DNA of 61,869 nucleotides, counting the filler, from Rhabdomonas costata (lineage: Eukaryota): the NCBI GenBank assembly GCA_019059605.1. It is 17 parts of 17 records of this genome, joined end to end, with 100 filler letters (N's around TTAATTAATTAA, not from the genome) between each part and the next. Parts side by side here need not be neighbours in the genome. Positions count along the whole stretch, not along the records: positions 21,948 to 25,496 come from JAHMHO010000741.1; positions 25,597 to 29,144 come from JAHMHO010000742.1; positions 29,245 to 32,787 come from JAHMHO010000743.1; positions 32,888 to 36,421 come from JAHMHO010000744.1; positions 36,522 to 40,061 come from JAHMHO010000745.1; positions 40,162 to 43,698 come from JAHMHO010000746.1; positions 43,799 to 47,330 come from JAHMHO010000747.1; 10 more parts are not named here. One strand, written 5' to 3'. The notes under the pieces were generated by a model. It was not told the DNA's origin and did not search any database. It worked only from the letters and a program-made list of their open reading frames with translations. How positions within the stretch are numbered: position 1 is the stretch's first letter; each line of letters opens with the position of its first letter. Positions 20,799-53,063 of the stretch are shown here, in pieces. A program made the position numbers and the translations under genes.

Positions 20799-21062
20799 AC
20801 CGAACCCACCCCAAAGACAATGAAGGGTCCACCATCAGTACAGTCCAAAGTGGTGGATGGTGAATGCCCGGGAGTGAAAGGAGGAAAGGAGCCAGATACA
20901 CAAAATCAAACCCTCAATAAGACCGAACCCACCCCAAAGACAACGTAGGGCCCACCATCAGTGAAGTCCAAAGTGGTGGGTGGAAATTGCCCGGGGGTAA
21001 AAGAAGGAAAGACAGAGCCAGACACACAAAATCAAATCCTTCATAAGAATGAACCCAAACCC
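20799..21062. repeat. Tandem repeat, 123-126-bp unit, about 2.1 copies
   Basis: ACCGAACCCACCCCAAAGACAA...CAAAATCAAA recurs at 20799 and 20922, with a partial third copy near 21048. Confidence 0.85.
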
Positions 21063-21675
21063 ATCGTCAGCAATTCTGAAGATCCTAGCTACCAGATGTA
21101 TGGTCTTCAGCAGCCTGTACATGGAGGTCAGCGGAAGCGGCGAATCGAGACATCGAGAGGCACAGAGGGATGACAGGAAGGGAGGCAGCAAGTAGAAGTA
21201 CAAGCAAGTACCACTTACAGGGAAAAAGACAGGCATAGGGCACAACAAGGGGTGGGATGGGGGCACAACAATTTCTCCCTCTGTGTCAGCTCAATGTCAG
21301 TAGCTCATCCGTCACTCCTATCAATATAAGCAAGCAAAGCAAAGCAAGCACAGACAATGGTGGTGGTCTGAGTAGGTATGAGAGGGGGAGGGGCTGGGAA
21401 TCGGAAATAGGAGGAAGACAGGAGAAAGAAGGACTGTGTGTATGTGTGAACTCGCTCACCTGCAGAAGAGCAATAAGGCGGCAAGGGGGGAGAAAGAGCA
21501 CAGCGGTCAAAGGGAGGTTGGTGCTGGGAAAGTGGGAACTGGAGGGGAAAGTGGGAAAAGACTTAACTGCACAAAGGAAAACTGAAAATGACACCATGAA
21601 TATGATGAATGTGACAATTGATAACGATTCCGTGAAGAGAGTTGGTCAAGGTCAAAAATATTCCCCCAATTCGGC

Positions 21676-22827: not shown

Positions 22828-24749
22828 GGTAGCAGCAGTCCGTGTCCGTGCAGCCTCCGGCCGAACATGGGGTGTCCGCCGGCTTGGGGGCGTCTCCAGG
22901 GGGGCAGCTGTGACCCGTGTTCCCGCACGTTGGAATCACTGCGGCGGGAAGCGAAGAGAAAAGCTAAACGATAATGCGCTAAGAACGCTTTCGTCACCAC
23001 CGGAACCGCGGATGAATGGGAAAGGAGCGATAAAACAATCGAATACGTGTGCAGCAGTCCGTCTGCTGGCACGTCGCCGTCGCGCACACGGTGCTGCTGG
23101 GATTCGTGGCGTACCCCGGGGGACAGCTGTAGCCGGAGCTCCCGCACGTCGGGTTCGCTGGAAGGGCGATGGAGCACACCGAAAGGGCACGAGAAAAAAA
23201 GTTTCGACTCCCATTGTTTTCATGCGTACTGCGCAATTCAGATTGAGACTGAGTCTTAGTAGTCACAAGGTCTCATGAGCGACCGACAGGCATCTACAGG
23301 AGCAATACCATCTCGTTTCACAATACATCCAAATTATACTCTTAAGAAATAAAAACCACGCGAAAATGATCAAGACAGCAAAAAGTGGCAAAAGAAAAAA
23401 CGCCAGCAGGTGAGACACGCGTGAAGAACAGTCGTTCCCGTCTTTAACGAAGGGTGGGGTGACGGAGGCAAACCTGTGCAGCAGTCAGTCGGGGTACACG
23501 TAAGCGTTCCACACACAGTGCTGGAATTTTTCGCCGTATACCCCGAAGAACAGGAAATGCTTCCACAGGTCGGGTTCGCTGCAAAAAGCAAGAGCTCCAT
23601 CAGCAGTCAGTCGGGCGACAACAAAACCGCACGTGAGAGCATAACATTTCTTTGCTACCTTTCTTTTTGTCATTGCCGGGTGATCAGGACAAAATTGTGT
23701 GAATGTAAGGATGGAAACAGAAAAGAAGTCCTTCCTGAAGCACGCGCACTGACTGATTACTCCCACGATGGACCCGGTAGCACGGGGGAGCGGTGGGGTG
23801 CACGCTGCCCACACAAGCCGAGGCCGACCGCCTGCTCCACGGGAGCAAAAAAGAGCAGAAGATTAGGAAAGGGAATGAGAGCGGTTTGTCAGAAACAGGG
23901 GCGTCCACAAGAAGGAGAGGGTACATAATTAAAAATACTGAAGTGGGGGAACAGGGATTTCGCGCGTAACCACCCTCCTTCCAATGACGCACTCACTCAC
24001 CGACGCATATCTCAGGCGACGGGAGAAAAACCCCGTAGAAAGTGTGAGAACGCCTTTGTTTAACCGCTGCTCAGCGTAGGATCTTTTTTCTGGACGCAGC
24101 ACCGTCGCCGATCATTGGCCAGGGCCAACACCGGGCAACAATACTAATGCCTAGGCATGCGTGATTCAACTAAAGCACAACTGGCAAATTAAATTCCGAA
24201 CAAAAGAAATCGCACACACCTATGCAACAGTCGGACTGGGCACAGGTTGCCGTACCGCACACCGTGCTCGAAGCCTTTGAGGAGTATCCCGAGGGGCAGG
24301 TGTACCCCGAGCCTCCGCATGTCGCTGTAAGAAAATCCAAAAGTACCCAAGGCCAACACCCACTGAACCGGTTTCCATTCCAGAGCAACAGGTTGCACTC
24401 ACTCGCATAAAGAGTACTTCTTCACACAGAGAATATCTAACTTGGCCATCGAGCGCCATGGCACGCTGTACTCTCCAAGTGAACAAGCTGGCGGCAGATC
24501 TGTGCGGTCGGGCTCCATCTTGGTCTCCGCACTCCTCAACAGTGACGAATGTTTTGAATGCTAATCAAGAGCCACTCACAAATGAAAAAACACGCAGGCG
24601 GACGTGCTCAACCAAAGGCATACGGCAAGGCACGACCATCTGGCAGGTGCCCCCCGTCAGGTGGCAGCCACCCTTGCAGTTGTGGACGTTGCACTTGTTG
24701 CAGTTGTGGGGGCAGCCATTCCCCGTCCGGGTGTCCGGGACGCTGCACA
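22828..24749 (-). CDS. Modular cysteine-rich protein, one module per exon, order B-A-A-A-A
   Basis: Phase 1-1 GT-AG exons: 24749-24624 (126 nt, VCSVPDTRTGNGCPHNCNKC..CQMVVPC), 24324-24220 (105 nt), 23578-23474 (105 nt), 23157-23047 (111 nt) and 22938-22828 (111 nt). The last four each match PTCG..C..G....T.C....C...DCC. Confidence 0.88.
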
Positions 24750-26155
24750 CTTATAAAGTGCACACCAAAGGAGGGCAAAACACTCCACCCTGCCGCTGAA
24801 AAGATGATGAACCAAGCTCAGGAAGGAGGAAATGAGTTCATGGATTCCACAGTTCAGGAAGTTGAAATTGCGGAAAAGGAAAAAACTCTTCGATTAATGC
24901 AAAAGACAAAAGAAAAAAGGCTACAAATACGCCTCTCAGGTTCACAGCAGAATCAAGTACTTACCACTGTAACTACATACAGACATAACGTTACCCGAGT
25001 GAGAACCAGGTGTGGGTAAAAACACTGGACGGATGACACTGCAAACGGACCTGTCGCAGCTGGTTCAAGGTGCCAACCATCTCCTGAGAAAAACAACCCA
25101 GATTCGAACCTTCGATACGAAGTGGAGAGAGAAGGAAAGAATAAACAGAAAACAAAGTCCCAAAGACAAGACAAACAATGAATGATAAACTGCAATGACA
25201 CTGGGTAAGAAATGCACCACATGCACCACACCCCTACAAGGATTTCTCGACCCAGTGTTGGGCATAGATTGGGGGAAGACACTGAGTACCTGCACCTATT
25301 TTTGTACTTTTGTAGCCTGGGACATGTCTGACGGCCTGTTGTCCTGGTGAGCCGGCACTAACGTCTGACAACAGTGCTACAGAACCCTCAGTGCGAGCAC
25401 TGAGGCTGCGCGCGCCGTCTCTACGCGGGTTCGTTCTGGGTGCTCCTCCCTCGGGTGCACAAAGGAACACCGTTGGAACTTGCATGCCACACCAACNNNN
25501 NNNNNNNNNNNNNNNNNNNNNNNNNNNNNNNNNNNNNNNNTTAATTAATTAANNNNNNNNNNNNNNNNNNNNNNNNNNNNNNNNNNNNNNNNNNNNGGGG
25601 GGAGTGGGGAGGGAAGGAAAATTTGGCTTCTGTGGTGATACACTTCTCCGCTTGACCAACGAGGCACAGTTTTGAAATGCAGACACTTGACCAGATTTCC
25701 GATTTTTAATGTCAAAAGGCATTTGCTCGCATGTGCCCGGTGCGGACACTTTGGCAGGAGCCGTTTTTCATTTGAACCCATACCAAGATTAGGCTCCAAA
25801 ATTGCTGGGGTGTTTCCGTTGGAATATTTCCTCCGTTTCTTTTGAATTTCAGTATTTGTCATTTGCTTCTGTGCGCGCGTGGGCGGACGCCTTTTCTCCC
25901 TTACTTCTCCTCCTTTTCCATCGCTGACATCTTTCATCGATGGAAGAGCCTGCGGCAGCGCATCACCGCCCGTCGGGGAGTGGGTGCAAGCAGCCCCCGG
26001 TGCGTTTCCCTGCTTTTTCCCACGATTTCATTTCTTTTTCATAGTTTGGCGAGTTCATCCGCCAGTTCTTCTGGGGATGTTCGCCCGCAAAACTACTCGG
26101 GTGTTTTTGCATGATATGATTTTTTTCGGCATAGGTTCGTTATTGGACCTACCTT

Positions 26156-26577
26156 GGAAACAGTCAACACGGGAAGTGTCCATCACGTACAAGGTTCAGT
26201 AATGTCAAGAAAGGGTCAGAGCCAGTACGCAGGTTATATCTCCACTGGAATTCCTTCAGATTCTCCCAGAGCAAGTGGTTCAAAGCCCCGCCACGAGCAT
26301 TCAGCCAGGTCTTTAGACGGCCCCAACAGCCGTCTATAGTGTTGGTGTGGACCCTGAGCCTGGTGCCCTTGATCACTGCATCCTTAGCATACTGACCTTT
26401 CCCATGATCCACATAGCCATGAATGAAACCGCATTTGGAGGACACCGTTGCATACGTCCTGGCCCCATCCGTGAAGAGAATTGAGCCTTTAGCAATTCTC
26501 GCAGCACATAGGTCAGCGACATCATTAATGCTTGGAGGACCGAAGCGGCGCTCGATGAAAAGAGCGGGAAACACTCC
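26156..26577 (-). mobile_element. Merlin (IS1595/ISXO2-like) DNA transposon, 5'-truncated; transposase ORF 26574-26164
   Basis: Motifs IAKGSILFTDGARTY, H..VDH, VHTNTIDGCWGRLK and L.EFQWRYN. The stop codon lies inside a putative terminal inverted repeat starting GGAAACAGTCAACAC at 26156, which fits the GGNRM start of Merlin TIRs. Confidence 0.88.
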
Positions 26578-27433
26578 CTAATACGATATAAGTTGCCTGG
26601 GGGGCGGTGCCCACCCCCAGACCCCCCCGCAGACGCATGGCGTCCTAACCCCTGCGAGAAAAATACTTTCTTCCCAAGGAAGGTCCAATACCGAACCTAA
26701 GCCTTTTATTCATACCCACTTAGTTCTACCTACAGTGATTTTTCGAGCACCCAGGCTGCCTTCGACTTTGGGGGTTGTCTATTGTGCGCACGAAGACAAT
26801 GTGAATGGGTTGTTTTGTTTTGCTTTTTAAAAATGTTGAATGGTGTTTCAGGAAAGCGGCGGCCCGACACTAGCTTCTCCGACACCGAATTCCCCCACCT
26901 ACGCAGCGTATGACGACTGCGAGGTGTGTGGTTGACTACAGGATTCACCTCTCTCTTAAGTGTCGTGCCTGCTCTCGAATCTTTGCGTTTCTGTCTCAGG
27001 TGGTCTCTTTGTACGAGTTGAAGCGGTAGTCTTTTGGTGTCATAGTACTGAATTGACACGTTGGATCTGGATCATTCCTATTCTGCAGTACATGTTAAGG
27101 GAATTTTGATGATAATGATTTAATTCCAAAAGCAACTGTGCTGCTGGAAATTTCGGGACTCAAAATACAGACTTTAGCAAAAAAAAAACCTTTGCCGCGG
27201 AAAAGGCACACAGTCAGTGTCAGAGCATAGCTTGACAGTCGAAAGCATCGTCCTTGAGCTTGTCGGGCTTAAGAGCTGTTGTAGTCTCTCCCCGCACACG
27301 TGGTCGATACCGAGAGGGCCATTCGTACTTGTTGAAACACTTGAAAGATGGGGAACAATTTGAAAACTGTCACTGTGCTGAGATAATGTCTGATCCCCGC
27401 TTCCCTGCTCCCCAGGTTTTCCCGATCAGTTTG

Positions 27434-29120
27434 ATGAAGACCCGGCAGTGGCATGGCCCGATGACGGTAATGGTGAGCACCTACCTCATCGTGCAGTGGT
27501 TGGGCCACATCATGTTGCGGCACTCGGGCAACATCCAGGAGAGCTTCATCCACCTGCTTAGGTGTTTGTGCTGTGGATTTGCCGACGACACCGCCAAAGC
27601 TTTCTTGATTGCTAATGGATTTTTCCCCCTCGTCCTTGTTCGCTGTGGGAACCGGAACAAAGGCTTGCGGGGTGCGCCATCCCGATGGCACTATTGGCAC
27701 TCCGCTGTGCGGGCATGCCTGTCTTGATCTCATTGTGCAAAAGAAACCGTTATGTAACCGTACGCCGATCTTGACACCACATTTCAGCTCCACTGTTCAG
27801 CGGTGGCTGCGCTCCTGTTGCATATGAGTGACATTCAGGTCTCCTAAGTTCTTTTTTCCTTAGTGCTGTGGCCTTTTCGAGTAATTTGGCTGTCAGTTGT
27901 CTGTTTTTTTGTTTCCGGCATTTTGTGCACTTTTCGGGCTCAGCCTTTCTCCGCTGGCAGTGCTGCAGGAGATGTTTGTCGGACTGCAGGACTTGCAGGC
28001 TCTGGGCTTTGTTGTAGGCTTCCTTCTCTTCGAAGGGTTTCTTCTGATCGCCGTGCCAGGAGGCAATTTCGACGGTCCACGAACTGCCAATGGGTTTGCT
28101 TTTTTATTTGCTCACTCCCCAAAATTGTGGTCGTCCTTTGCGTTGGCCAGTTCTATCCATCGATAACTACAAAAATAACACAAATTACACCCCGTCCTGT
28201 GCCCAAAACAGCAAACAGCACTAAAAGGAAAACACAGCATAAGGTGGGAAAATCCTGCAGAAGCTGCAAGAGACACGTAAGATGGGTTTTGGGGTCGAGA
28301 TTCCAAGCAGAGGCTGTGGAGGAAGAACGATGTAGCGGAACCGTAAGCAGTATTCACAGAGTGTTCGGAAAAACTTGGGGACTCCGAGGACATGAGATTA
28401 AGAGAAGCTCCTTGGGGTGCGGCACAGACGAACGGCGACAAAACTATGACAGGTTCGCGTGCATCAGGATTGACGATCGAAACTGTTCTTCTTCAAGGGA
28501 TAGGTTAACTTATTTTCTACCTTCCGGGTCATTGGGCGATTTGTCGTTGTTGCTCCTGTCTTCCGAAGGCGAAGTACTGAAAGCCACTCCACTACGATAC
28601 AAGACACTCAGCTCTGTTCGCGACATTCCTGAGATCAGGAGCCCCATCCGACCCGGACAAGTGACGCTTTCGCGCTTTCTGGGAACAGAAAGTGGTTACC
28701 TCTTCCTCTGACCTTTGCATCCCCTCCCCATATGCATCCTCCAACCCGAGTGGTCATGTCTTCGCGCTTTCTGGGAACAGATATGTTCCGGTGTACCGAA
28801 CCAACGGCCTGGCTTGCCACCTCCTCACCCTGGCCACCTGGGCCGTTCTGGCGGTCATGGGAGCCCTCCCCGCGGCCTTCCTTGCGGAGCACGTGCAGGG
28901 CGTGCTGACGTGGTGCAACCAGGTCGGGATGGTGGTGTGTGGGCTGCTGTACGTGAAGGGCAAGGTGTGCCCCACGGGTCCGGACAGCGGGCCGAGCGGG
29001 GAGAGCCCGGTGTTCGACTTCTACTGGGGCCTGGAGCTGCACCCCCGTGTGCTTGGGGTGGAGGTGAAGCAGTGGACGAACTGCCGGTTTGGGCTGATGC
29101 TGTGGTCCGTGGCCTGCCTT
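27434..29120 (+). CDS. DHCR7: Sterol delta-7 reductase (7-dehydrocholesterol reductase, DWF5-like; ERG4/ERG24 family), 3'-partial
   Basis: Exons 27434-27561, 27944-28093 and 28781-~29120 give PGGNFDGPRTANGYVPVYRTNGL..LLYVKGKVCP..DSG..FDFYWGLELHPRV..VKQWTNCRFGLMLW. Confidence 0.9.
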
Positions 29121-29244
29121 TCACGTACAGCAGCCCACCCACCCNNNNNNNNNNNNNNNNNNNNNNNNNNNNNNNNNNNNNNNNNNNNTTAATTAATTAA
29201 NNNNNNNNNNNNNNNNNNNNNNNNNNNNNNNNNNNNNNNNNNNN

Positions 29245-29558
29245 GGTTGGCGATGAGAGGAAACTTTTGTCCCACATCTCGCTCTCCCAGCGCTCCTCCT
29301 CGGCAACAGACCAGGTGTCCACATGGGTGGACCGTGGCGGTCAGCCGCATCACACTCCCCCACAAAGAGCGATCCCTGATCAACGCAAGGGGCTCCAGTG
29401 GAAGGAGGGCGGCTGGACCGGAGTCTCAGTCCCAACCTCCAATTCCTAATGATGCTGGTGTGCTCACCCGGCGCTCGATGGATGAACCGGACTAAACCAA
29501 CTCAAAACGGGGAATGAAGGGGAAAAAAGGGGGGCCAAACCACAGGCAAAGGCAAGAA
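29245..29558 (+). repeat. About 314-bp imperfect direct repeat, copy 1
   Basis: Matches 32454-32767 with about 9 substitutions counted by eye. Confidence 0.92.
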
Positions 29559-32453
29559 CCGCGGGAAAGTCGACAAACAAGAGCAAAGGCGCACTGGGGA
29601 TCACCTTAATCCTTGCAAGCCTTTATTACCAAAGGGCGTCTCTCATCTTATATCTGGCGTTGCAATTTTTCTCCTCTCCCCTCTGAATGTTGGCTGCTAT
29701 CCTTTCTCCTGTGCCTCTGGCTTGCCCGGTCTTCCTGCTTTTTCTTCTTTTCCATCCTCCTTCCCAACATCTCGCGCGCGGGGGTATCGCAATTCTATCT
29801 GTCCGGTGCGGTCTTCTCTAACCTCCACCTTCCTGTCTCTTTCTCTCTCGCGGCGCTTTTCTGCCAGTAATGGGGTCATATGCTCGGACTGAGATGTTCC
29901 CAACTTCCCAGGGTGAGGTGTTGAATCCCTTGCATCATTTACTAAAAAAACTACAACGAAAACGAATGAGTGATGCGCGCGGGGAGTTGTGGTGTTTCAC
30001 ATCTTCCTACTTTGCGAGCGTTTGCAGTTGTATGTCTGGTGGTGCACCATCTTTCCGTGAACCTCGTTGTGTTTGACTTCTCCGTGCCCACTTCAACAAA
30101 CCTGTAACCATGCTTGGCAATTTATGCGCGTAGCATACTACTTTGCATAACACGCAGGGCGAAAATCACGCAAATGCTTGGAGAAGCGACCCCGCCCGAC
30201 TCTATACCAGTGGGTGGTAGGAATGATACATCACAGCGAAACCATAATTGCAGCGTTAGACATCTAGCAACAACTGGTTCTATTCCTGGATAACGGTGAA
30301 AAGTTTTACACAGCGCAGCGCAGTTTCACGACTTGGAAGCAAGCGGGCGAAGAGCCTCGAAGAGCGCGTCCTGAAGGTCAGGACGGCGGACGCCCATCCG
30401 GAAGAAGGTACTCATCTCATACCTATGATAAAATGGGTTCAAACAATCGGTGAGCTTATCTAACTGCACGTGGCAGACGTGTGGGTGGGTAAATGATAGA
30501 TTTTGGTATTCCGGCCATTGAAATGGTCCAGGTGAAATGGTGCAGAATGGAAACTGTAGCCAAATTCATCTAATGGAGGGCCTACAATGTAGAGCCTACA
30601 ATGTCCAAGGGGATGGATGGGAAGTTTTCCAGAGGTCAGAGGGGCTCAGCCTCCGATTCCACTCCACTACTTGTCTCATTTTCATCCGCATGGAGCTCAA
30701 ACCACCCAAGAGATGACACGGAGGGCAACGCGCTGTGAAAGAAGCCGAGAATGCAACCGCAAGGAAATTTGTTTGGGATTTAGAAAGCGGTTGGCCGTGG
30801 TGTTCAAAGTCAGACGCAGGCAGACGTTCACCGCGTTATTTTTACTTCGCAAAGCACACAAAAACTAGCAAAAAATGAGATGAGGAGGCTGATGGGTTTT
30901 GAACAGGTCACATTGAACTTTGAACTCTGAATTTCGGTATCCCTTGAATTTTTGACGTTTTTTTTTGCGATGGTCATGACAATGAGCTTTGAATTCAACT
31001 TAGCACATTGAACTTTGAACTGTTGACACTGAAAATTGATCTCCCCACATTAAACTTTGAGGTTGGTGGTGTCCTCATGGGTGGGTTCTGAAAACAAAAC
31101 ATTCGCAAATTGTTACACGAGGAATCGCCGGTGGTCATTCAAGGGGGGGGGGATATGCGCTTCTTCATTAGGAAAACCAGTGAAGTCCCTCCAGCCCCAC
31201 TGCTACACTTCGTCAGGCTTTGACGCATTTCGTACAATGAGGCTTATGCCACAATGATTTTGGATATTGAAAATGAAAATATTAATGAAAAGTTTCATTC
31301 TTCCCACCCCCTTTTCCCGAAATTTGCAACTTCGCGTTCGGTTACATCGTTTTTCCTTTTACCTTTTTCTTACTTTCCCAGAGGTCCCCAGAGGTCACAC
31401 ATGGCAGTACAGGAAATCAACCAAAGAGAACAAACCAGTGTCCACCCACAGCGAGGGAACCCAAGGTTCTCCGTAAACCTTCCAGCCCATGGTCTCCTCC
31501 AAAAACTTCTTGGAGCGCTCTCTCCTGGGTAGGGGACAGATTCCTTCTGGCCAGTTTAACATGCAAGAAATCACTGTTCTGGACTCCGATTTTGCGGGAG
31601 CAAATCCGAGGAGTTCTGATTAAAATTCCCGATTCCATTCATTGCTACTCTCCAGGGCATTGGCCATGGAGAGGGATTGGGATCGGAGCAGAGTCAGAAT
31701 GTACTCAAGAGACATGGTCATGGATATGATTCGATGAAACGACGGAGTGGAACGGAGCGGCTAGACCGACGGGCAACTGTGCCAACTGTGCTCTTATTCA
31801 AGTATGTTTTGCAATGGACCTATGCAAAAGCGAACCAGGGAACAACAAACCAACCGCCTCGTGCGCCGGGGTATGTTTAACTCGGCGGGCGAGTTATTGC
31901 CCTCGACTCTTGTACGTTGAATGTCGGTTTGTCAGCGCTTGGTACTATTCTGTTTCGTCCTGCGCGTGCTTGCCGCACTCAAAAAACTCGAACAACTGAA
32001 GAGGAAGTACAAAAGGCAAAAACAGCACCGGATTCCAAAATGCGGGCCGAGGCGGTATTTTTATCCTCGGCTACCCGTTGTTGCGGTCGGGCCGACTGGG
32101 AACCGGTACTTCCGAACCAGGTCGGCTTTGCCTGGGCGTAGGATCGATACCTCAACCAATCGGTTGCCGGCTTTGGTTCGAGTTTCGGTGCCTCTTCCTG
32201 GCACTTCTGTTGGGATCAGCGGCAGTACGGAATTAAGAACAACACAATCTCATATTTGCGTTCCGTCCAACGAAGCTTTGGCATGCAAAATTGAGGCAGC
32301 TATTGAGGCAAAGGATTTTACTCCCAATCCTCAGCTCTCGTTTCCGGCCCTCTCAATCCACCCGTGCCGATCTTTCAAGCATTCGGTCCGAAGAGGGAAT
32401 TCTTCCGTCTCTCTCGGTTCCTCGCTCTCTCTCCGATTCTGCCCGGTGGATCG

Positions 32454-32767
32454 GGTTGGCGATGAGAGGAAACTTTTGTCCCACATCTCGCTCTCCCAGC
32501 GCTCCTCCTCGGCAACAGACCAGGTGTCCACATGGGTGGACCGTGGCGGTCAGCCGCATCACAAACCCCCACAAAGAGCGATCCCTGATCAACGCAAGGG
32601 GCTCCAGTGGAAGGAGGGCGGCTGGACCAGAGTCTCGGTCACAAACTCCAATTCCTAATGATGCTGGTGTGCTCACCCGGCGCTCGATGGATGAACCGGA
32701 CTAAACCAACTCAAAACGCGGAATGAGGGGGAAAAAAGGGGGGCCAAACCACAGGCAAAGTCAAGAA
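32454..32767 (+). repeat. About 314-bp imperfect direct repeat, copy 2
   Basis: Offset 3,209 bp from copy 1. The minus strand carries a decayed RING-like stretch (TVHPCGHLVCCRGGA..PL..NPI). Confidence 0.92.
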
Positions 32768-34772: not shown

Positions 34773-36298
34773 CTGAGCAGCAGTCCTGCTGTGTGCAGGC
34801 GCTGGAGAAGCAGACCGTGCTGGGGTCCTTCGCGGTGAGACCCGAGGGGCAGGAGAAGCTCTCGCTGCCACAGGTCGCGTTCACTGCACAAGCAAAAAAA
34901 AAAGCCCTGCTGGAGAGAAGCGGTGAGGGATGCAATGTGGATCTTGCCATTGAGTTCTCCCATTGACGGCGGATGAGCCACTCCCCCTCCCCCTCACGAC
35001 GTGTTGGCTAAGCTAGAGCCATGGTAAAGAGGCAGTCCTGCGAATTCCTGTTGATCAAAAACAGCATACAGGGAACGCGAAAGACGAAAGTCGGAAAAGC
35101 ACAGGCCCAAGGGCGTACCGCAGGGCACAATCAGCTCGCACGCCGTGCCCGTCCACAGGCACTCCACTTTGGCTTGCCCATTCCCGCACGCATTTGGCGT
35201 GGTGCAGTCACCGCAGTTGTTGCCGCAGCCTTGTCTGCCTCGGTTGTCCGGCGCGGTGCACACTGGAGCTAAAGCAAACGTACGTCCACACATCGCACGA
35301 CCATGGTCCCACCTGTGTCCTCTTTGCGAATGCATTGCGAGCTCATGTGCATCTCCACAGAGCAAAGTTCTTGCAATCGCATCGCAGCGCAGCCCACAGC
35401 CCATCACGGAAGCCTTGACCTTCCCCAGACCATTAGAAGGAGGGAGACTCTGTTGGCGGAGCAAGTTTCTTGAAAAGGCTACTGGCAACAACACAGCAAG
35501 GGCCACCACGCCGCCACAGGATACCACGCCGCTGCTAAAGAAAGCATATGCCCAAAACAAGCGTTCCGTGACTCGGGACATCTTTTGGGAAGGAAACGCA
35601 ACATTGGGCGGGAGGTTTTGCAGCCGCCTCTGCGTAAGGAAGGCTTCGTGCAACAATACTAAACGCTTGGGAAGATGCGCAAAACTCCGCCGGGAAGTAT
35701 TACGAAAACGAAGGTGACAAGAGGTCATTAAAAAGAGGTCCGCAAACGGCACCCTCCCTCGGTCCTACTCTCTCCGTCAGGGCTTGCGCGCGATTGCATG
35801 AGAGAAGGAACCCCAGATACTGAGAACGTACCGCAGGGCACGACCAGCTCACAAATCGTGCCCGTCCACACGCACTCCTGCTTGGCGACTCCATTGCTGC
35901 ACGCCTCCACCGTAGGGCAGGCAGTGCAGTTGTTGCCGCAGCCATGCCCTCCTCGGTTGTCCAGCGTGCTGCACACTGCGCATATCATTGCAGAAGCACA
36001 AGCGCACGCAAAGAGATAATCACTAGCACCAACCCCAGAGACTCTTCTGCGCACGCAGCGCAAACGCAAACGCAAACCCCAGCCAACTAGACTAGATAAA
36101 CGGTGTGTGGGAGTGGGAGGGAGTACACGTACACATACACGTACACCCACCCACCCACAGGCACACCACCCTCGCAGCAGTCCGCAGTGCTGCACGAGGA
36201 GCTGAACGTGCAGACCGTGCTGGGGTCTTTCGGCGTGGAGCCCGAGGGGCAGGAGAAGTTCGTGCTGCCGCAGGTCGCGTCGGGGCCCGGCAGTTGAA
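34773..36298 (-). CDS. Modular cysteine-rich protein(s), one module per exon, order A-B-B-A
   Basis: Phase 1-1 exons: 36298-36170 (129 nt, A), 35975-35832 (144 nt, B: VCSTLDNRGGHGCGNNCTAC..ECVWTGTICELVVPC), 35262-35119 (144 nt, B) and 34883-34773 (111 nt, A). Confidence 0.88.
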
Positions 36299-36550
36299 CT
36301 GGAGGGAAGTTGCAAAATATGCGCCGCCACGCTTCCCAGTTCGAACCGAAAGAACTAAAAAAAAATCGGTCCCTCGTTTCCTGCACAGGTGGCTGGCGTG
36401 GAAGAGGCTAGTTACACTTCCNNNNNNNNNNNNNNNNNNNNNNNNNNNNNNNNNNNNNNNNNNNNTTAATTAATTAANNNNNNNNNNNNNNNNNNNNNNN
36501 NNNNNNNNNNNNNNNNNNNNNGGGTTGTTGTACCTTCCCTTGCCCTTACC

Positions 36551-36711
36551 TTGGACCATCCCCACACGGACTCATACGCAGTGGAGTGGAGCTGCCACCC
36601 GGAGTACCACCACGACGGGGTGTGGTCGAACTTCGTCGGGCCCTACGCCATGTTTCGGCACTGCATTGCTGGGCGGGAGGTCCACCAGTACCAGCTGGAC
36701 CACCTGCAGCA
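36551..36711 (+). CDS. Exon-like fragment of an unknown protein
   Basis: GC3-rich frame DHPHTDSYAVEWSCHPEYHHDGVWSNFVGPYAMFRHCIAG..LQQ ending at a CAG|GT donor. Confidence 0.4.
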
Positions 36712-37317
36712 GGTGCCCCTGACATCCTTAGCTTTGGGGTAAGGGTCCAGGGTCACCAAAAGTTCTGGCACTTCCACAGAGAAAGACAGAAGACAGCGTC
36801 TCTCGGTCTCTCATCTCAGAGATTATAAGCCCAAAGTGGCCACTTTAACTGGAAGATTTGACCACACGGCAGATCTATGGGCCGTCGAGTACTCCGAGTA
36901 CTCGCCCCCCATCCTTGTTCTTGCGTCATTTTTGTCGTTTCTGCAACTTTTGAAACGATGGTACCTACCAAGTCGGATGGCGTGGCACCTTGCTTTGGTG
37001 CTTGGACGTGCATATTTTTTATCAGGCGATGTCACCAGCTATCAGGGTGCAGCGGAAATTGGGTAGAGGGGAGTAACGGTTACCACTGGTAAGGTATCAA
37101 ACGTATCAAAAAGTGTTCTTACTTGCAAACTTGCAAAGGTTAAGTAGCTGTTGAAAGCACTCTCGAAATGACTTAATTTTCCTGTAACGGGTTTAGGTGA
37201 CCTGTGCCAGCGTTCTCTTAATGAGTGCTGCAGCAGAAACTAAGAGCAGCATTGGAGCGGGGGGGCTCTTTCTGGACCATATTCCACCGCTAAGTCTGAT
37301 CTTGAGAAGGGCTCTAC

Positions 37318-39875
37318 CTCCACGGGCACGGACGAGCGAATGGGCGAGGTCATGGGCGAGGGTGCGGCCACAGGACGGGCGCCGCACTGGGTGGCCATTG
37401 CAAGGCTATGTGCCAGCAGTTCCTGCAGGCTGGCCTGCTGTAGGCTGCTCCGCGAATTCTCCTCGAACTGTGCGTCCCCGGTATGCAGGTGGAAAGCCAG
37501 TATGTGTGCGCGCGCGTATGTGTGGGACACTACATCACTGCTTGATGCACGTTCTGCATGCAGGAAAGAATCAAGTCAAAAATATTGAGGGAAAGAGGAG
37601 GAGCGAGCAGACCGAACTGGAACTTCACGGTAATTATGTGGTTTGTTATCAACTCGCCAATATAATCTTCGAGGCAAACAAAGATCTGTGTGATTTTATT
37701 TAGGAATGTTTGCTTCTGGTCGTAACGCTCTCCTAAAGCTCTTCAAAAGGATCTAAGATAGCACTCGTTCCCTTAGGGACAAAGCTCAAACCTGCAAAAG
37801 AAGTGTTTCCTGAAGTTGGAGCAAGTCGGCTCCAGAAGTGCTCGGAACGACCTGCAACAGGGATAGAACCTCACTCACAGCTGCCTCTGTGCTTGCAAGA
37901 AAAGCCCAAAACAAAGTGTGAGAAACGCCGCGCCTAACTGCGACTTCTGAATTGTACTTATGACAAGTGCGTTCGTTTTTCTTTGTGCAACGCCATGAAA
38001 ACACACACGCACAACGGGTGACAAAATACACTGACAATCGTGGTGTGCATATGTTTGAGGTTTATCATATAACACTTGCTTTGGGAGATGACTCGCAGGT
38101 ATTTGGAACTTCTCACCAGTCCTCGAGCATGCCACAGAAATACGACGAAGAAGTTATAATAGTAATCCAACTACGGACAAAACAGCACAGAACTTCACCG
38201 GGGAAAGGTGAATAACCCACTCTCCCTCTCACTTCCTAACCCCCCCACAACCCTCTCTAATTGTGATCAAACGTTGACTAACGGCAGCATACCTTTGGTT
38301 CTGGTACTGCGGGAGAGCAGGCAGCTTGAAGGTCATGTGACTCTAGCACGGTTTGCACCTATGCGAAGGTCGAGCAGATGGCTTCGATGTGGTAAGCTTT
38401 CGGACAGACTGTCATAACATTTGTTGGCGGGCATCATACCTCTGCTTCAAGACCGGCGGTGCTTCCTCCAAAAAACGATACTACACTTCTGTGGCCCCCA
38501 TGAAGCAGCAAATACACCCTTGGAACGCAAAGTTTTTCCAACTCAAAGGGGCAGACGCGATGAAAGTACGAAGAATGGGAGCATGTGCAGAAAATTCCGC
38601 TTCTCCATTGCGTGCGTGTGCGAAAGGCAACAGATCACCGGGAGAGAAACCTTGGCTGCGACGCGCTCCAGCTGCGCCTCACTCAGCACAGAAGAGGACC
38701 CTGCAGCACTGATAGATTGAATCTGCATACAGTACCACCCAGCAAAGACAATATGGAAACAATGCAACCCAAAACCACACAGAAGAAAAAAGGGGAATGG
38801 GGAGGTGTCCGTGTGCACTGCCTTTGACATCAAATTCCACAAATTCCACGAATTGCGCCAGAATGGTCGCAACTTGGTGCAAAGGTTCCCTCCACTTCAC
38901 CCCTTTTCAGTAAATCAGATCCTATTTCCTGGTCTCGGTTGCAGACCTTGCGTTCCAGGGCACTTGCGAGCTTCACGACCTGGTCCTCTCCAGACACCAC
39001 CGAGCACTGAACCTGAGACAGAGCAAACTGCTGAAGAAGCAACGCGCAAAGCTCAAGGCAGGAAAGGGGGGTGGGCGGCTTTTCCCGGCTGAAAGGCAGC
39101 CGATTTGGCAAACAGCTACTACCCAGGACCTGCACTTGGGCAAAAAGCTTCACCCCCCCCCCCGTTAGCAATCGTTTTGGTTTGGGTCTGTTTAAGTTTA
39201 TGTTTAGGTATCAACAAGTGTCTCCTTGAGGATCGCGGCTTCATGAAATGAAAAGCCTGTGCAGGCTAGCAGGGGTCGGACACTGTGAAGAGATTCTGAA
39301 GTCCTAAAAAATTTATTCCATGGAATTTTTGATGCGTGAAAAAACCAAGCGGAGGGCTCACTAGTTCTGGCGCTGACACTGGGGTGATTATGCAGACTGC
39401 TCGGTTCTATCTGCCCCTTTCCAGAATACCTACATTTTTGCCCTAAATTTGGTCCGCAAGTATAGGCAAAATTCTACTTCTCGGATTCCATTAACCTCAG
39501 TGTGTACTGAAATTGTTATAAGGGGGAACACAGGGTCGTGGTGGTGGTGGTGGGGTGAGTCGAGAATTCCGTGCGTCACCTCCCTGGGTGTACTCGAGTG
39601 GGTAGGTGGTGATGAAATTGTAACTCGTAAAAAATATTATTGAAAATTCGCGATGAAAAAGATTCTTATACGAGCAAGTGTGGCACTGGACGGTATTAAT
39701 GCCCATCCCTAGTCAGCGCACCCACCCACCCACCTGCTCGGCCAGCGCTCTCATCTGCGTGGTGAGCTGCTGCCCCGTGCGCGTCGTATGCGCCGAGAGG
39801 CGCTGCAGCATCAGCTCCCGCCGCTCGGCGTCCTGCTGCGCAAACAGCGCCCGCCGCAGCACTTCCTCGGAGCTC
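37318..39875 (-). CDS. Hypothetical multi-exon coiled-coil protein (fragment)
   Basis: Short exons ending in AG|GT at about 39875-39734, 39030-38980, 38710-38652, 37890-37792 and 37462-37318 (EEVLRRALFAQQDAERRELMLQRL..; LSEAQLERVAAK; LLQLQETLLLQ). Confidence 0.5.
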
Positions 39876-40452
39876 TACAAAACCAAATTCAAAAAAGCAG
39901 AAGCAGCGCACTTGTCAATGGGTCTGTGAGAAGCTGGCTTGCTCCAAAGGCACTGGGAGCCCCAAAAGCGGTGGCATTCCGCACTGCTTTGACTCAGATC
40001 GAATTCGGGATTACTTTCCTGACCCCCATAAACGTAAACCCCAAAAACCCCCCAGGACTGCNNNNNNNNNNNNNNNNNNNNNNNNNNNNNNNNNNNNNNN
40101 NNNNNTTAATTAATTAANNNNNNNNNNNNNNNNNNNNNNNNNNNNNNNNNNNNNNNNNNNNGGTGGGTTTTTAACACTGCTTCTGCTTTAGGCCGCTGTT
40201 AAAGAATTGACAAACTGCACCCCTTTCCTACTTTTTCGCGTCACTGTCGTTTCCCACACTGAGGTTATAATTCACTGGTCCGGTCTCACCAGCCCCTCGC
40301 GGTCATTCTTTCGTCACACTCACGCGGTTTTTATCACAGTGGGGACAAGCTTACTACCTATTTACGTGCACCAGATGTGTTTCTTTCGGCTTTATCTTCC
40401 TTCGAAAACGGGAGAATGGAATGACCGCACCCATTACGAAGTGCGGCCCTAG

Positions 40453-43297
40453 ATGCCCGCGGAGCCCTCGAACAGAATGCTCACGATGTGCTCTGTGGTG
40501 TTCAGCGCATTGAGCCTGTTGTGGGTCAGCCATGTATGGCTGCATGCCTTCACCCTGGTACAAACACGGAGAGGGAAGTGGAAGTGGAATTGGAATTTCA
40601 GTGTTCTTGCTTTTTTGAAGAGAAGGTGAAAACTGTGCATCTCGTGAGTAAAATGAATTTCATCAGAATCGTACGGATTTCGACCACTGGTTCGTTTTGG
40701 CGCGAACGCACGCACTCACGCACACACACAGACAGACACGCTCATTCTGATTGTATCGCCAACACGGATGTTATTAACAGTCGTCCGCCCAACCATGAAA
40801 ACCGTTTACGAGCGCACAGTAGTAGCACCCCCCCCCCAAAAAAAACTCCAGAGTTTTCCGAAGTGCCGTTAGCATACCTTTCAATGAACAGCATTCGTGT
40901 GATAGCATCCCTCTGGTGCGAAACCCCTCTGCGTTGGGGAGTGGGTGCTCTTAAGCGCAAGCGACCCATAATCCAGTTGTGGTGTTGCGCAGAGTTTGTT
41001 GACCCCTACAAGAACCTCTACTCCGATCCAGATCGTGGATCCTGCCGCAGCGGAGGGTCCTGAGCTTCGCGTTCCCTTCCCACCTGAAGGTTTCTTGTTA
41101 CCTCAACACCCGACTGCTACTCATTGGACACCTTTCCTTTGCAACGCAAATGGGGAAGTTGAAGTCAAAGCGTTTCCCTTTTGGGCAGAGGCGAAAGCTT
41201 CCCTTCTGCTTTGCCACTCATGAGGGATGGGTTCCTCTTTCAAAGCTTGCTGGAACACCGCTGCTGATTGGACTGGGCACAGCACCACAGGCAACGCCCA
41301 TCAAGGGGACATGAGATGAGAAGATGACAAAAATGGAAGAGCAGTCCAAGGTCTCAGAAAAAGGCAACGCCCTCCCACCGCGAGAATTCTATCCCATTAT
41401 CCCAAACTACTCCAGGACCTTACGGTGATCGCTTGGCGCTGTATTTTCAGCTCTTCTGCCTGCCGAGCTGCCTGGGGTGGAGGAGCCTCTCTCCGATGGG
41501 CCCCCCCGGTGGCAGAACCCCTTGCTGGCGGGATGCGTGCCGGTGTACCCCGAGAGCGAGGCGGTGGTATCTTCCCTTCGGGTGGTTGGGGCCCACCCCG
41601 AGGTCCGCCACAACGTGCTGCTGCGGAACCACCCTCGGCCTCAGGACTGTGTTCGAGCGGGCTGGAAATGGCGAGGTCCCCCCCCCCATGTCTCCCAACG
41701 CACAGGCCAGTCTTCCCGGTGTTTGGTTGGGGATGTGGTTGGGGACGTGGAAGCCTCGCTCCGCTCCGTTCCTGATGCGAAGGATATCAAACGCTCCCGT
41801 GAGGGTGCGATGGTCGCTTGCATTGGGATTACTGAAGAAGAAATTCAGGCATGAAGATAATGAGCAGAGGTAGCAAGAAACCTCCCGGGTAGTGCCGCTT
41901 TGCCTGGGTGCATATCTCGCACCTTCTCACGAAGTAAAAAAATATGAGAAAGGTGGGGAGGTACGCCACCGCTAGGGAGGTCCGCAGCTCGACACGATGG
42001 CAGGTAGGGGATTGGCACAAAGCCCTGAAAGTGACCATTGCAAGCCAGTAAGGATCACCTTATAACCCTCTCCATTGCCAACAGGTAACAGGTATAGGAA
42101 GTAAACCGGAAACTTGCCCCTAACACCCATAAATGGCCCCCCAAAAATGGTCCGCTAATGTCCGCCAGGGCAGCTCAGCCAGGTAGCTGTTCGTAGAAAG
42201 CTCTGCTTCGGTAGGCGAGCCGGCTCCTGCGGGCCCGGCGGTGCCCTGACGTCGTGCAATGGCCTCAGCTATGGCTGCCATACTCTGCAGAGGGACCAGC
42301 GCCGCGAATCTTTCTGGGGTTAACCTTCAACCTGGAGGTGGCCGTGCTGCTGCTAAGCCTGCGGGAGCTGCACGCTACGGTGGACTTCTTTGTCGTCGTG
42401 GAGAGCGCATTCATGAATAGCGGGCTGCCAAAGCCGCTGTATTACGACCAGGTGCACAAAGGACCCCGCCCCCCTCCGCACTCTCGCACACCTTCCTTCT
42501 TATGTGGCGCAATGTGTTTTTTGCGGCACATCGGAAAAAATGCGCTAAGACCCCTTCGTGTCCACTGCAACGATGGATGGATGCCATTTTGATATTCGCT
42601 CTCCATCTTTTAGGCTTTTCTCCTCAGTCGTTGTTTGTTTTTGAGTGCATTGACCTCTTTCCTCAGGTGAAGAACACTACGGACTTTCTCCCTTTCCGAG
42701 ACCAAGTGATTCATGTGCCGCTGGTGTGCAAGGGGTGTGGGTCGGGCTCTCGTGTCCTTTCTTCCAACCCAAACCTTGTCCTGCTCTGATACCGATTTGC
42801 TTCAAGCAAAAATTTGACTCCTAAACAAAATCGGATGCCCGCTCACATTGGTCCACCTTCAGAAGCCGACCATCTATTGATTGATGTGTGAGTGTTGTTC
42901 GAACAGTAGGTGATTGGTCCGGTAGCGCTTGGCTCCTCAGATAACGGTGGTTTTTACTAACGTACACGTGGTTATACTTATACGGTGGTTTTTCAAGGAC
43001 CCCGAGAACCCCAACTGTGGCTGTGCGATGGTTTTAAGTTCTTTCTGCGTTCCGTGCAGACAAAGCCGCCGCAGGGCAGCGCCCGTCAGCATCTGAAGCT
43101 ACAACGCCAGCAGGTTGTCCGTGCTGCGCTGGCGCACAGCACAGACCCCAAGCGCGACCTTATCGTGCTGGCGGACTGCGACGAGGTGCCCAAGCCTCCT
43201 GCGCTGGCCATGCTGAAGGCTTGTGATGGTATAACTAGGCCGAGGTTTTTGCAAAGAAGGCACTTTCACCGTTTTACCATGAACCTGGTGCCACAAG
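40453..43297 (+). CDS. Glycosyltransferase family 17 (MGAT3-like beta-1,4-GlcNAc transferase), type II membrane protein, 3'-partial
   Basis: N-terminal hydrophobic exon at 40453. Catalytic exons at about 42291-42451 (FNLEVAVLLLSLREL..VDFFVVVES..SGLPKPLYY), about 42668-42735 and about 43060-43296 (DLIVLADCDEVPKP.AL..LKACD). Linkage of the 5' exons is inferred. Confidence 0.85.
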
Positions 43298-43900
43298 TGG
43301 CAGAACGGTCCTCAGAGCTTCTCGGCAGCTGCTTTGAAACCAATTGTCAATCATCACAACCTTTCGTTTGTTGCTCCTTTACTTGGGTGGGTTCCAGCAG
43401 TTAGCTGGATTGCGGCGCCGTGACTTTCATTGTTTTTAAAACCGGCTATACTCTCTCTCTCTCTCTCTCTCGCATTCATATAGGCTTGCCCCCAATTACC
43501 AAGATTTCATCATTGATGATTGAGACCGATAATAAAAGCAAAAGCAGAAAAAAACGAAAAGCCCAACGAGCTGGCGCCACACTTCCTGCTTCTGATTTAC
43601 GACCCGACTTTTCCAAGGCGGAGGAGGGCGGGTCAAAGTTTGCTTAGCTGTCAGGGGATGTGAGGAGAAGACAAACTTTCAGGTTAGGACCCAACCCCNN
43701 NNNNNNNNNNNNNNNNNNNNNNNNNNNNNNNNNNNNNNNNNNTTAATTAATTAANNNNNNNNNNNNNNNNNNNNNNNNNNNNNNNNNNNNNNNNNNNNTT
43801 TTTGGGGGGGGGGGGCATCTTTGAGTTTATGTTTTCGCTCTCCTTGAAACCGCATTTGAAGCGGACAACCGCACTTTCTTTCCCTTCTTTATTTTTCCAG

Positions 43901-45200
43901 GCTTACACCCCCACGTTTGAGGATGAGGGTTCCTGCCTGCGTGCGGAAGTTCTTTCCTACATTGGAGGTTGTGCACCGAGCACTGTCAATCGGGGGTGGG
44001 GTGGGGGAACATCTTCCAGCAATCAGAAGGACACTAATCACCACCGTTCTTCTTCCGCGCACGTGCGCGATTTTGCTGTACAGGTCAGTTCGAGGCTCTG
44101 GTGTTCGACATAACCGAGCCTATATCCCGTGGTATGTCATTTCTGACTTGTACGCGTGGACGCCCAAACCCGGTCATCCTTGGGGTGAATTAATGAGTGA
44201 ACATGTTTGAGTGGGTGCAGATTTGCGGACTTCAAGATCTGACTGTACGATTGGGTTTACTACCGGGTTTGTACCGGGGTTTTGTGTGTGCCCATAGGCG
44301 TTCCGAAGGCTTTGGCGCTTGAGTCTGACGCGCCACCGCAACAAGGGTTACCTGTTAAGGTGCTCTCCTTCTCTGTGCTACTTGCAACTGTTGGAAGAGC
44401 AACCCTTTGACGTAATTTGGGGCGGGAGGGGGCAGGTTTCTACAAGATACTCTGGAGGCCAAGATGGAAGCAGCACTTTTCAGTATGCCCGTTGAGCGCT
44501 ACACCCACACAATATGCGATCTTCAGATGCGATCCTCAGCATTTTAATTTGCTTGTGTCATATTCCTTCGTTGGTTTTGCATGCTGGTTTTGTTAGGAAT
44601 GTGTTTTGGATTGCTCTTCAGCTCTCCTAATTTGCTTTTCTGGTTTGGAGCATTTTACGCGGACTGAGTACGTTGCCTGTTTTTGCAGGTGGTTTCGGAA
44701 CTTGGCTGATGGAAAGCCTCCCGTCGGTCTGGAAACGGATCCCCTGTCCAACTCGTACACCCCCACAGAACAGGACGTGGGCTACCCTCTGCGAAGTGGT
44801 GTGCCTGTTCTTCTGTCGATCATTGTGTTGCCCTTTGACAGGTCTTCTCTCCTTTCTGTCGTGGCAGTGGTGAAGTCTTCGCATTTGTGACTTCCAGTCG
44901 ATAGTCCGCCTCAATGTTCGTCAGAGATGAAGAATTGACAAACTGCATGGGGTCAGTGCGAAAAACGTCGAAAAACGTCGAACGCAATGTTTGGAGTCCC
45001 CCGTCTTTTCTGTGGACCTGAGTCCCGTGGCATTGTTGTGGAAGTTGTAGATTTCAACTCCTCCGACCTTTTCGTTGTTAGTGTTGTAATCCTCTTGTTT
45101 CTCTTATTTGCAGATGTACAGATGGTACACCCCTTGCCGCTCTGACGGCGTCACAGGGGAACCTCTTGAGGCGACCTCTGCCGTTGTTGTGCCGTGGTAG
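43901..45200 (+). CDS. AIR9-like microtubule-associated protein, C-terminal A9 (Ig-like) repeats
   Basis: Exons at about 43901-43967, 44084-44131, 44298-44359, 44436-44482, 44689-44800 and 45114-45200 give YTPTFEDEGSCLRAEV..YSGGQDGSSTFQWFR..SYTPTEQDVGYPLR..YTPCRSDGVTGEP*. Confidence 0.8.
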
Positions 45201-45870
45201 TTGCAAACTTCTATGAAAAACTGCTACAAAGCCGATTTCAACAAAAAAAAGATTACAAGGTGGCGGCTAAGAGCACTGAGAGAACATGCAAAAACATACT
45301 GGAATTCTGGGCATGTTTTAGGGATTTTGGATAGCCAATAAGATGGGTTGTGAGGTCGAACAAAAATGGATTTTGTGGGCACGCAATTATTCCCCGATGA
45401 AAAAGCCACATCCGATATATTTGCAGAAAAGGGACAGATTTTGTGAGAAAGCAAACTTCAGTAAAGGTGCAGCGGGTCACATTTTGGTGCGCAATAGCGC
45501 ATAAAGCAAGTATCTTCCAATTTTCGCGAAATAAAGTCTCATCATGTTATCACTAGCGACGTTTTACTCCAAGACAGCGCACAACAGGATTAATCGAAGT
45601 AAAACAGCAAATGGGATTGAAGGGTTATTCATGGGCAGCAGTTCGCCGACTTTCTACAGACTTGGGAATCCGGAATCTAAACACGGCCGTGCCATTCTGT
45701 GCCCGCAGACAGAAAGGGCTAGAATAGGCCCACCTGGAAGGACCCCATAGCAACATTGAATGCAAAAACTGCTGCCCCACAACTGAGGCAAAACTGAAAG
45801 AACTGTAAGCACTTATATGGCGGAGGAGGGGAAGGAGGACGCGCCGGGTGGGTGGGTACGGATACATTAC

Positions 45871-45984
45871 CAATGCAACACTCCGTGTCGGTGCACATCG
45901 AGATGTTGCACACCGCGCTGGCATTGTGGAGCGAGTACCCTGCTGGGCAGCTGTAGTTGCTGCCGCAGGTGGGACCCATCTTAT
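45871..45984 (-). CDS. Single type-A cysteine-rich module exon
   Basis: 114-nt phase 1-1 exon, KMGPTCGSNYSCPAGYSLHNASAVCNISMCTDTECCI, with the same 6-Cys pattern as the type-A exons at 22.8-24.3 kb and 34.8-36.3 kb. Confidence 0.85.
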
Positions 45985-52571: not shown

Positions 52572-53063
52572 CGCCGTGGGGAACTGCGTGTGTGCGCGTT
52601 GATGTGATACGTGAAAGTGCTTTAGGAGCAGCGAAAAACACAGTGATACCCACATCGACTTTTGTCATCGTCTGTCTACACAAAGGGTAACCCGCACTGT
52701 TTATCCCTGATGCGTGATAGTGCCCAGGCTCCGAAATATGCGCAATTAGGCACGGAAGAGATGGATGGTAAACGCCGAAACATATAGTGACCTCCGCTCA
52801 ATTGCAAACCCTCTACCCAACATGGAAACTGCCGAGTACGAGGGAGTACCCAAGCGCCATGAAACTTCACTGGCCTCTGACCCAACAAATGGCATTGTAC
52901 GCCAAGGAAACTACAGTGCAAGCTTCCAGGATACACGACGAGAGCTCCGCATGTGCACAATAAGACTGACACCGCACACTCCAAACTCAGCAAAAAAAGG
53001 CGTCTGTGCCTGTGCCTCACATCCAGGGGCACAACTAGAAGCGGAACAACCCCCCTCCCACAC

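Follow-up and report, generated by a model that had tools for sequence, protein, structure and literature searches.

Candidate tandem disulfide-rich modules encoded by class 1-1 exons in the protist Rhabdomonas costata

The analyzed window, a stretch of 61869 bases of Rhabdomonas costata DNA (assembly GCA_019059605.1), consists of 17 separate contigs of 3529-3583 nucleotides (nt), arranged with the largest first and divided by spacers of the form N44-TTAATTAATTAA-N44. Ten short stretches on three of these contigs are probably internal exons of at least three multi-exon genes, which would encode secretory or surface proteins built from tandem disulfide-rich modules of two types, A and B. Judged by its sequence relatives, module A is a widespread, unannotated six-cysteine module of secreted and membrane proteins.

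Module detection combined a six-frame regular-expression scan with hidden Markov models (HMMs) of the aligned modules, run with filters off against 1763 stop-to-stop open reading frames (ORFs) of at least 20 amino acids (aa). Exactly seven type A modules (55-65 bits) and three type B modules (71-95 bits) were recovered from the window, while the next-best ORFs scored far more weakly, with expectation values (E) of 0.069 for the A HMM and 1.3 for the B HMM. This confirms a preliminary description of the same DNA, in which ten exons with one module each had been placed on three of the 17 contigs. All ten modules lie on the minus strand and are confined to contigs 7, 10, and 13, in the order B-A-A-A-A on contig 7, A-B-B-A on contig 10, and as a lone A on contig 13. 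The coordinates and alignments bear out both this difference in order and the constant cysteine spacing with variable loops that had been reported, and the previously given span of 22828-45984 corresponds to the outermost exon ends. The exons and introns are the following.

24624..24749, minus strand: type B exon of contig 7, 126 nt, 8 cysteines, phase 1-1, HMM score 70.8 bits.
24220..24324, minus strand: type A exon 1 of contig 7, 105 nt, 6 cysteines, phase 1-1, 57.7 bits.
23474..23578, minus strand: type A exon 2 of contig 7, 105 nt, phase 1-1, 55.3 bits; spliced junction CCI-A-NPTCG.
23047..23157, minus strand: type A exon 3 of contig 7, 111 nt, phase 1-1, 63.2 bits; spliced junction CCT-A-NPTCG.
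22828..22938, minus strand: type A exon 4 of contig 7, 111 nt, phase 1-1, 60.6 bits.
22939..24623, minus strand: four phase-1 GT-AG introns of contig 7, 299, 641, 316, and 108 nt.
36170..36298, minus strand: type A exon 1 of contig 10, 129 nt, phase 1-1, 55.5 bits.
35832..35975, minus strand: type B exon 1 of contig 10, 144 nt, phase 1-1, 95.1 bits.
35119..35262, minus strand: type B exon 2 of contig 10, 144 nt, phase 1-1, 92.0 bits.
34773..34883, minus strand: type A exon 2 of contig 10, 111 nt, phase 1-1, 65.0 bits.
34884..36169, minus strand: three phase-1 GT-AG introns of contig 10, 194, 569, and 235 nt.
45871..45984, minus strand: single type A exon of contig 13, 114 nt, phase 1-1, 64.3 bits.

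Every one of the ten exons is preceded by AG and followed by GT, has a size divisible by 3, and is of class 1-1, opening on the second nt of a split codon and closing on the first nt of the next; these properties had been claimed earlier and hold without exception. The A exons measure 105, 105, 111, 111, 111, 114, and 129 nt and the B exons 126, 144, and 144 nt. The donor GT of the A exons falls at a constant site, 4 nt past the CC pair, in all seven cases, and a DNA pattern of module A written in IUPAC code matched five of the seven A exons and nothing in 100 dinucleotide shuffles. A few exons carry individual features. The B exon of contig 7 has an in-frame TAA directly upstream, with tataag/TG as acceptor and C/gtatgc as donor; A exon 1 of contig 10 could alternatively be spliced at a phase-1 donor lying 3 nt downstream, for a length of 132 instead of 129 nt; and the A exon of contig 13 contains an in-frame ATG two codons in, so it may alternatively be a first coding exon. 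The dimensions are compatible with the figures printed for euglenid drafts in the available text of PMC8219788 and PMC6366073, which puts the guanine-cytosine (GC) content of R. costata at 51.6% and, in E. gracilis, the median exon at 112 nt, the median intron at 598 nt, and the share of conventional introns at 80%. The 17 contigs of the window have GC contents of 45-57%, the exons span 105-144 nt, and the GT-AG introns 108-641 nt.

The ten stretches are read as real coding exons, carrying one module each and joined by predicted splicing, because four independent lines agree: similarity that is limited by the exon borders, the ratio of nonsynonymous to synonymous substitution rates (dN/dS), a gap-free alignment of the spliced product, and the exon design of an unrelated locus, L004. 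When contigs 7, 10, and 13 were compared among themselves by blastn, seven of the eight matches ran between module regions and stopped no more than about 7 nt from the exon borders, and the introns of contigs 7 and 10 had no alignable DNA similarity in this three-contig comparison. Across 24 module pairs the proportion of synonymous differences (pS) was 0.29-1.05, mostly near saturation, and that of nonsynonymous differences (pN) 0.19-0.42, with pN below pS in all 24. In the 18 pairs for which dN/dS was computable it was 0.12-0.82, below 1 throughout. The modules are old duplicates held under protein-level constraint.

Splicing the exons in silico gave frames that stay open across 185, 175, and 37 residues, contain no stop, and consist of 16-17% cysteine, the products being rich in Cys, Thr, Ser, Gly, and Pro. 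The contig 7 model aligned without gaps over 156 aa, at 49% identity and E 1e-55, to P0007, a relative in which four modules follow one another uninterrupted (P numbers denote stored relatives, L numbers loci found elsewhere). Both predicted junctions, CCT-A-NPTCG and CCI-A-NPTCG, are also present in the uninterrupted P0007 and P0010, and that of exon 3, CCT-A-NPTCG, matches its counterpart in P0007. L004 itself is an unrelated metagenome contig of 1043 nt, found by the DNA pattern. Its Kelch-like exon ends in phase 1 and is followed by a GT-AG intron of 120 nt; the next exon, an A exon of 111 nt, ends 4 nt past the CC pair at a GT. The spliced junction of L004, ..TLNL-A-NSTCG, resembles the Kelch-to-module junction of P0027. 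A tblastn comparison of 44 relatives with the window produced 190 high-scoring segment pairs, all of them on the ten exons and 0 elsewhere.

The surroundings of the contig 13 exon include an exon-like open frame at 44597-44890 on the plus strand, opposite to the A exon, with a polypyrimidine tract and AG just 5' of the coding-looking part and a GT after ..LPFDR. Its sequence suggests a convergent neighboring gene, which would leave limited space for further exons downstream in the module gene.

Module A is defined as C-x(3-5)-C-P-x-G-x(9)-C-x(4-5)-C-x(3)-[DE]-C-C, a pattern that holds for the seven window modules, and the consensus of the family is P-T-C-G-S-x-[FY]-[TS]-C-P-x-G-[YF]-T-x-K-x(3)-T-x-C-x(4)-C-x(3)-[DE]-C-C. 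Its relatives were collected by an exhaustive HMMER profile search of 1.84 billion (1.84e9) representative proteins, in which the A profile found 41 representatives at E ≤ 1e-3, of which 8 reached E ≤ 1e-10 and 1 reached E ≤ 1e-30. Among the 44 stored proteins, 132 instances of module A score at domain E < 0.01; the count falls to 121, spread over 42 proteins, without P0032 and P0036, which were treated as false positives on account of YSCPSGYT repeats that lack the CC pair. Identity to the window modules is 45-63% for P0002, P0007-P0010, P0027, P0029, P0037, and L004, and no relative is identical to one of them. The only named relative, P0002, has an identifier of the form used for Rhabdomonas costata transcriptome proteins and consists of a signal peptide, a single A module with 63% identity to one of contig 7, and a membrane span. 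This identifier and the dimensions compatible with euglenid drafts point, with moderate confidence, to a euglenid-like origin of the window. Eleven representatives (P0001, P0020, P0023, P0024, P0025, P0030, P0033, P0034, P0038, P0039, and P0043) read as prokaryote-style ORF calls in which a single module runs into intron-like junk, and on the same reading they are further genomic loci of this design in a related genome.

The remaining relatives are mosaic proteins of diverse architecture. Arrays of module A make up P0007, P0008, and P0010, and arrays stand behind a signal-peptide-like start in P0008, P0011, and P0016. Kelch propellers accompany A modules in P0009, P0027, and P0037, a Methyltransf_FA domain in P0018, a subtilase (Peptidase_S8) with two A modules and a membrane span in P0029, and pentapeptide repeats in P0040, while among metagenome loci an fn2 domain occurs in L003 and tyrosinase in L001 and L005. 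A Lys/Asn-rich group (P0003-P0006, P0013, P0014, and others) combines an N-terminal anchor with up to 6-7 scored modules. Module A is thus a mobile module, its relatives carrying it beside at least six unrelated domains, and together with the repetition of the exon design in L004 this lends support to the earlier view of a shuffled module. Among full-length models of the family's array proteins, L002 (26-2863, plus strand) may be the best: in this metagenome or transcriptome record, a 945-residue ORF encodes many A-like modules in unbroken succession together with another region rich in Cys and a stretch rich in Ala, Val, and Ser, and its C-terminal end is hydrophobic.

The membrane topology of the relatives was approached with a crude Kyte-Doolittle measure, an N-terminal 9-mer mean of at least 2.5, a threshold chosen post hoc and no equivalent of a signal-peptide predictor. 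Subtracting read-through calls and false positives from the stored proteins leaves 31 plausible full-length relatives, 18 of which have a hydrophobic N-terminal segment by this measure; P0002 and P0029, which pair a signal peptide with the module, have an additional membrane span C-terminal to it. These 18 hydrophobic N-termini and two C-terminal spans may lend indirect support to an extracellular or secretory location, and we infer secretion for the window's own products.

Curated resources do not name the module. Pfam returned no match at E ≤ 10 for any A module of the window or over the module region of 20 relatives, and a sequence search of the PDB gave only non-significant entries for A (Sushi, RNase, and capsid chains, E 0.3-8). 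The absence of any curated Pfam repeat above threshold agrees with the preliminary description, which had been unable to assign either module to a named domain. An ESM Atlas search with P0008 yielded no usable match, and a metagenome search with P0007 gave 68 pattern matches, of which 0 were confirmed. No description of module A was found in the literature searched, including the available text of PMC8219788 and PMC6366073, whose supplements might list such families; the main text of PMC6366073 never uses the word 'cysteine'.

An AlphaFold2 (AF2) model of module A, built on a 21-row alignment, reached a mean predicted local distance difference test (pLDDT) score of 79.9 with little regular secondary structure, and the modeled module is likely a compact fold. 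Its structural neighbors numbered 0 in the PDB by Foldseek, 0 at Z ≥ 2 among 48161 chains by VIA-align, and none at E ≤ 0.001 in BFVD, with the 42-residue model probably too small for the scores of structure searches.

A giant-virus origin was also considered for the Lys/Asn-rich relatives (P0003-P0006, P0013, P0014, P0026, P0031, P0041, and P0042). It is unsupported, on a weak test: a scan of viral contigs with P0004 was empty, and a scan with the DNA pattern brought up no real module.

Module B contains eight cysteines, and its three copies are 44-66% identical. The consensus proposed for it earlier stands overall, except that three residues, not two, separate the first Cys from the Asp. Module B was also unmatched in the PDB by sequence, in the 44 stored proteins, and in loci L001-L005; an ESM Atlas search with a B module gave no usable match, and the B profile was not significant against the Cys-rich stretches of P0008 and P0019. 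Module B may be lineage-specific.

Within a locus the module copies are the most alike, with identities of 69% for A1/A2 and 66% for B1/B2 of contig 10 and 68% for A1/A3 and A2/A3 of contig 7, compared with 62% for the best pair between loci. The arrays therefore seem to grow chiefly by local exon duplication. Since each exon is of class 1-1, duplication, loss, or transfer is possible without a frameshift, and the earlier proposal of frame-neutral duplication or recombination is upheld to that extent. Under the proposed mechanism, every module in the lineage of the window would be a single class 1-1 exon, arrays would lengthen mostly through local duplication, and recombination within introns would move a module between genes with the frame kept; at L004, module A has been placed at least once behind a phase-1 intron. 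In other organisms the module occurs in arrays or alongside domains with enzymatic or binding roles, and there it probably faces the lumen or the cell exterior as part of secreted, type I, or signal-anchored proteins. The even cysteine counts, six in A and eight in B, would permit intramodule disulfides formed in the secretory pathway, and the arrays would then likely provide secreted or cell-surface proteins with a rigid stalk or binding surface stapled by disulfides. A broader version of this proposal, that type A is a previously unnamed extracellular six-cysteine domain of several protist lineages that behaves as a mobile class 1-1 exon in a euglenid-like lineage, copied within genes and placed beside propellers and enzymes, is tentative and somewhat doubtful.

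Frame-neutral exon modules that build mosaic extracellular proteins are textbook material for animals, and the shuffling of 1-1 modules is generally presented as largely confined to animals. To our knowledge, such mosaic proteins have rarely been documented in protists. As in the animal class 1-1 modules (EGF-like, Sushi/CCP, and RECK CC domains), one small disulfide-rich module occupies one exon, here in ten of ten window exons and in L004, phase-1 introns lie on both sides, and tandem arrays occur in variable order. The likeness extends to the placement of the same module beside unrelated domains in different proteins, which for A comprise Kelch, Methyltransf_FA, Peptidase_S8, pentapeptide, fn2, and tyrosinase. 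Unlike the animal systems, the host is a protist, and there is no match in sequence or fold, the best PDB entries being Sushi-containing chains at a non-significant E of 0.3-0.8. The principle of class 1-1 module shuffling is set out in the available text of PMC7502776. Among the relatives, P0007/P0008/P0010, P0009/P0027/P0037, P0002/P0029, and L004 have the six-cysteine module and the inter-module junction in common with the window, and L004 also has its exon borders and phases; unlike the window, the A relatives are without type B and are unannotated, Pfam covering only their other domains.

Among protist systems, the Paramecium surface antigen domain (PF01508) is likewise a Cys-rich periodic module; the antigens that carry it are very long glycosylphosphatidylinositol-anchored proteins consisting almost entirely of this repeat, with one expressed at any time. 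Two of the three B exons match it weakly over most of the profile (positions 14-58 of 62), B exon 1 of contig 10 with 13.6 bits and B exon 2 with 14.4 bits, both short of the gathering cut-off of 21.2. The earlier comparison of type B to Paramecium antigens accordingly retains these weak scores in two of three copies but not a match above the cut-off. The third B module and all seven A modules are unmatched at E ≤ 10, and the arrays described here, unlike PF01508, mix two module types. Type B had also been called PSI-like, and by eye it shares with the PSI domain (PF01437) eight cysteines, a C-x2-C pair, and a Cys-x-Trp near the C-terminal end; this comparison fails in Pfam, where none of the ten modules matches PSI at E ≤ 10. 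Nor does any of the ten match the Giardia variant-specific surface protein (VSP, PF03302). Giardia VSPs have frequent CXXC, whereas type A has none; the C-x2-C pairs of type B number two in the contig 10 copies (C-x2-N-C and N-C-x2-C), with a third in the contig 7 copy.

A variable surface coat like that of the Paramecium antigens or Giardia VSPs, with a huge family, one or a few members expressed at once, and varying loops, is quite unlikely as the role of these modules. Constant cysteine positions amid variable loops, the weak PF01508 scores in two of the three B modules, and members on three of 17 presumably unrelated contigs, hinting at many loci if the sample is fair, would all suit such a coat; yet the scores stay under the cut-off, the third B copy and the Giardia VSP and PSI profiles give no match at E ≤ 10, and the A relatives are mostly mosaics with enzymes or propellers instead of pure repeat coats. 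Alternative skipping of 1-1 exons, generating many variants per locus, is an unlikely explanation too: its only evidence is that every exon is frame-neutral, which is permissive and not positive, and a simple history of duplication predicts the same equally well. Cargo of extrusive or mucus organelles (mucocysts or muciferous bodies), by which the proteins would form a secreted matrix or adhesive with no membrane attachment, appears quite improbable. The C-terminal membrane span of the nearest named relative, P0002, and of P0029 speaks against it, although P0008, P0009, P0011, and P0016 combine a signal-peptide-like N-terminus with no membrane span, and the Cys-, Thr-, Ser-, Gly-, and Pro-rich composition of the window products also fits. 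Still less probable is that the stretches are decaying or non-functional repeats, such as pseudo-exons or remnants of mobile or viral elements that resemble exons. No complete gene model could be built on contigs 7, 10, and 13, and the contig 13 module is single and isolated, but none of the ten reading frames is interrupted, pN stays below pS and dN/dS below 1 wherever they were computed, similarity is restricted to exons, splice signals stand at homologous positions in ten of ten, and the spliced product matches an uninterrupted relative end to end. Six loci came up in a DNA pattern scan of viral contigs; none has a real module, and one is a low-complexity repeat.

The preferred reading, internal exons of genes for secretory or surface proteins with tandem A and B modules, has several observations weighing against it. 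Exons for a signal peptide, a membrane span, or a glycosylphosphatidylinositol (GPI) anchor were not found on contigs 7, 10, and 13, the gene ends lying outside or being unrecognized, and the protein of contig 13 could begin at Met-Gly-Pro-Thr-Cys, with no signal peptide. N-glycosylation sequons show no enrichment in the window products (7 seen against 5.5 expected, P = 0.29), and 13 of the 31 plausible full-length relatives, some of them fragments, lack a clear hydrophobic N-terminus. For module B, no relatives appeared in a word-indexed protein search, the exhaustive profile search having covered A only, and structure prediction, which the preliminary description had proposed for the modules, succeeded for A, without a structural neighbor, but gave an unusable model of B with a pLDDT of 53.7. 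The splicing is predicted from sequence and homology only. If three of 17 contigs were representative, the family would comprise hundreds of loci or more, but this density stems from a tiny sample and is not convertible into a family size.

The novelty lies in a new domain family and in an unusual host for a known evolutionary mechanism. Module A has no name in the curated libraries tested, though it has relatives in many uncharacterized genomic and metagenomic proteins, and a new domain model would label at least 39 representative protein clusters. The case also provides gene finders with a recognizable exon signature in fragmented protist assemblies, and it is a convenient setting in which to ask if module shuffling biased by intron phase had an origin of its own outside animals. 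If the broader, somewhat doubtful version of the proposal is true, animal-like exon shuffling of extracellular modules would have operated at large scale in a free-living protist. The functional implication is limited to a likely secretory or surface location.

The other contigs of the window contain no ribosomal RNA, transfer RNA, or Rfam families, these being absent from the window as a whole, and several carry repeats. On contig 4, a 100% identical stretch occurs at both ends in the same orientation (10996-11079 and 14421-14504; 28 aa when translated), which could mark a circular or tandem element or an assembly artefact. The direct repeats near both ends of contig 9 (29257-29683 and 32466-32775, about 89-95% identity) are either similar to long terminal repeats or a tandem duplication. 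Contig 16 has an internal direct repeat (54733-55379 and 55719-56250, 75-97% identity), and contig 6, the most AT-rich with 45% GC, has a tandem repeat and a perfect short palindrome (20658-21290 and 18304-18447).

NHL repeats are the only family besides the A and B modules that is common to more than one contig. A long ORF with NHL repeats lies on contig 14 (49231-50637, plus strand; Pfam 86.5 bits), and a weaker NHL-like ORF, at 16.7 bits under the cut-off, on contig 17 (59766-60269, minus strand); another ORF of contig 17 (60569-60994, minus strand) shares 43% identity with the NHL ORF of contig 14 across 51 aa. On contig 15, an ORF (51741-52664, minus strand) encodes a Methyltransf_24 domain (73 bits) preceded by a stretch that is rich in Cys and EGF-like, and contig 1 has an ORF (2439-3113, minus strand) with a glycosyltransferase family 8 domain (40.6 bits).

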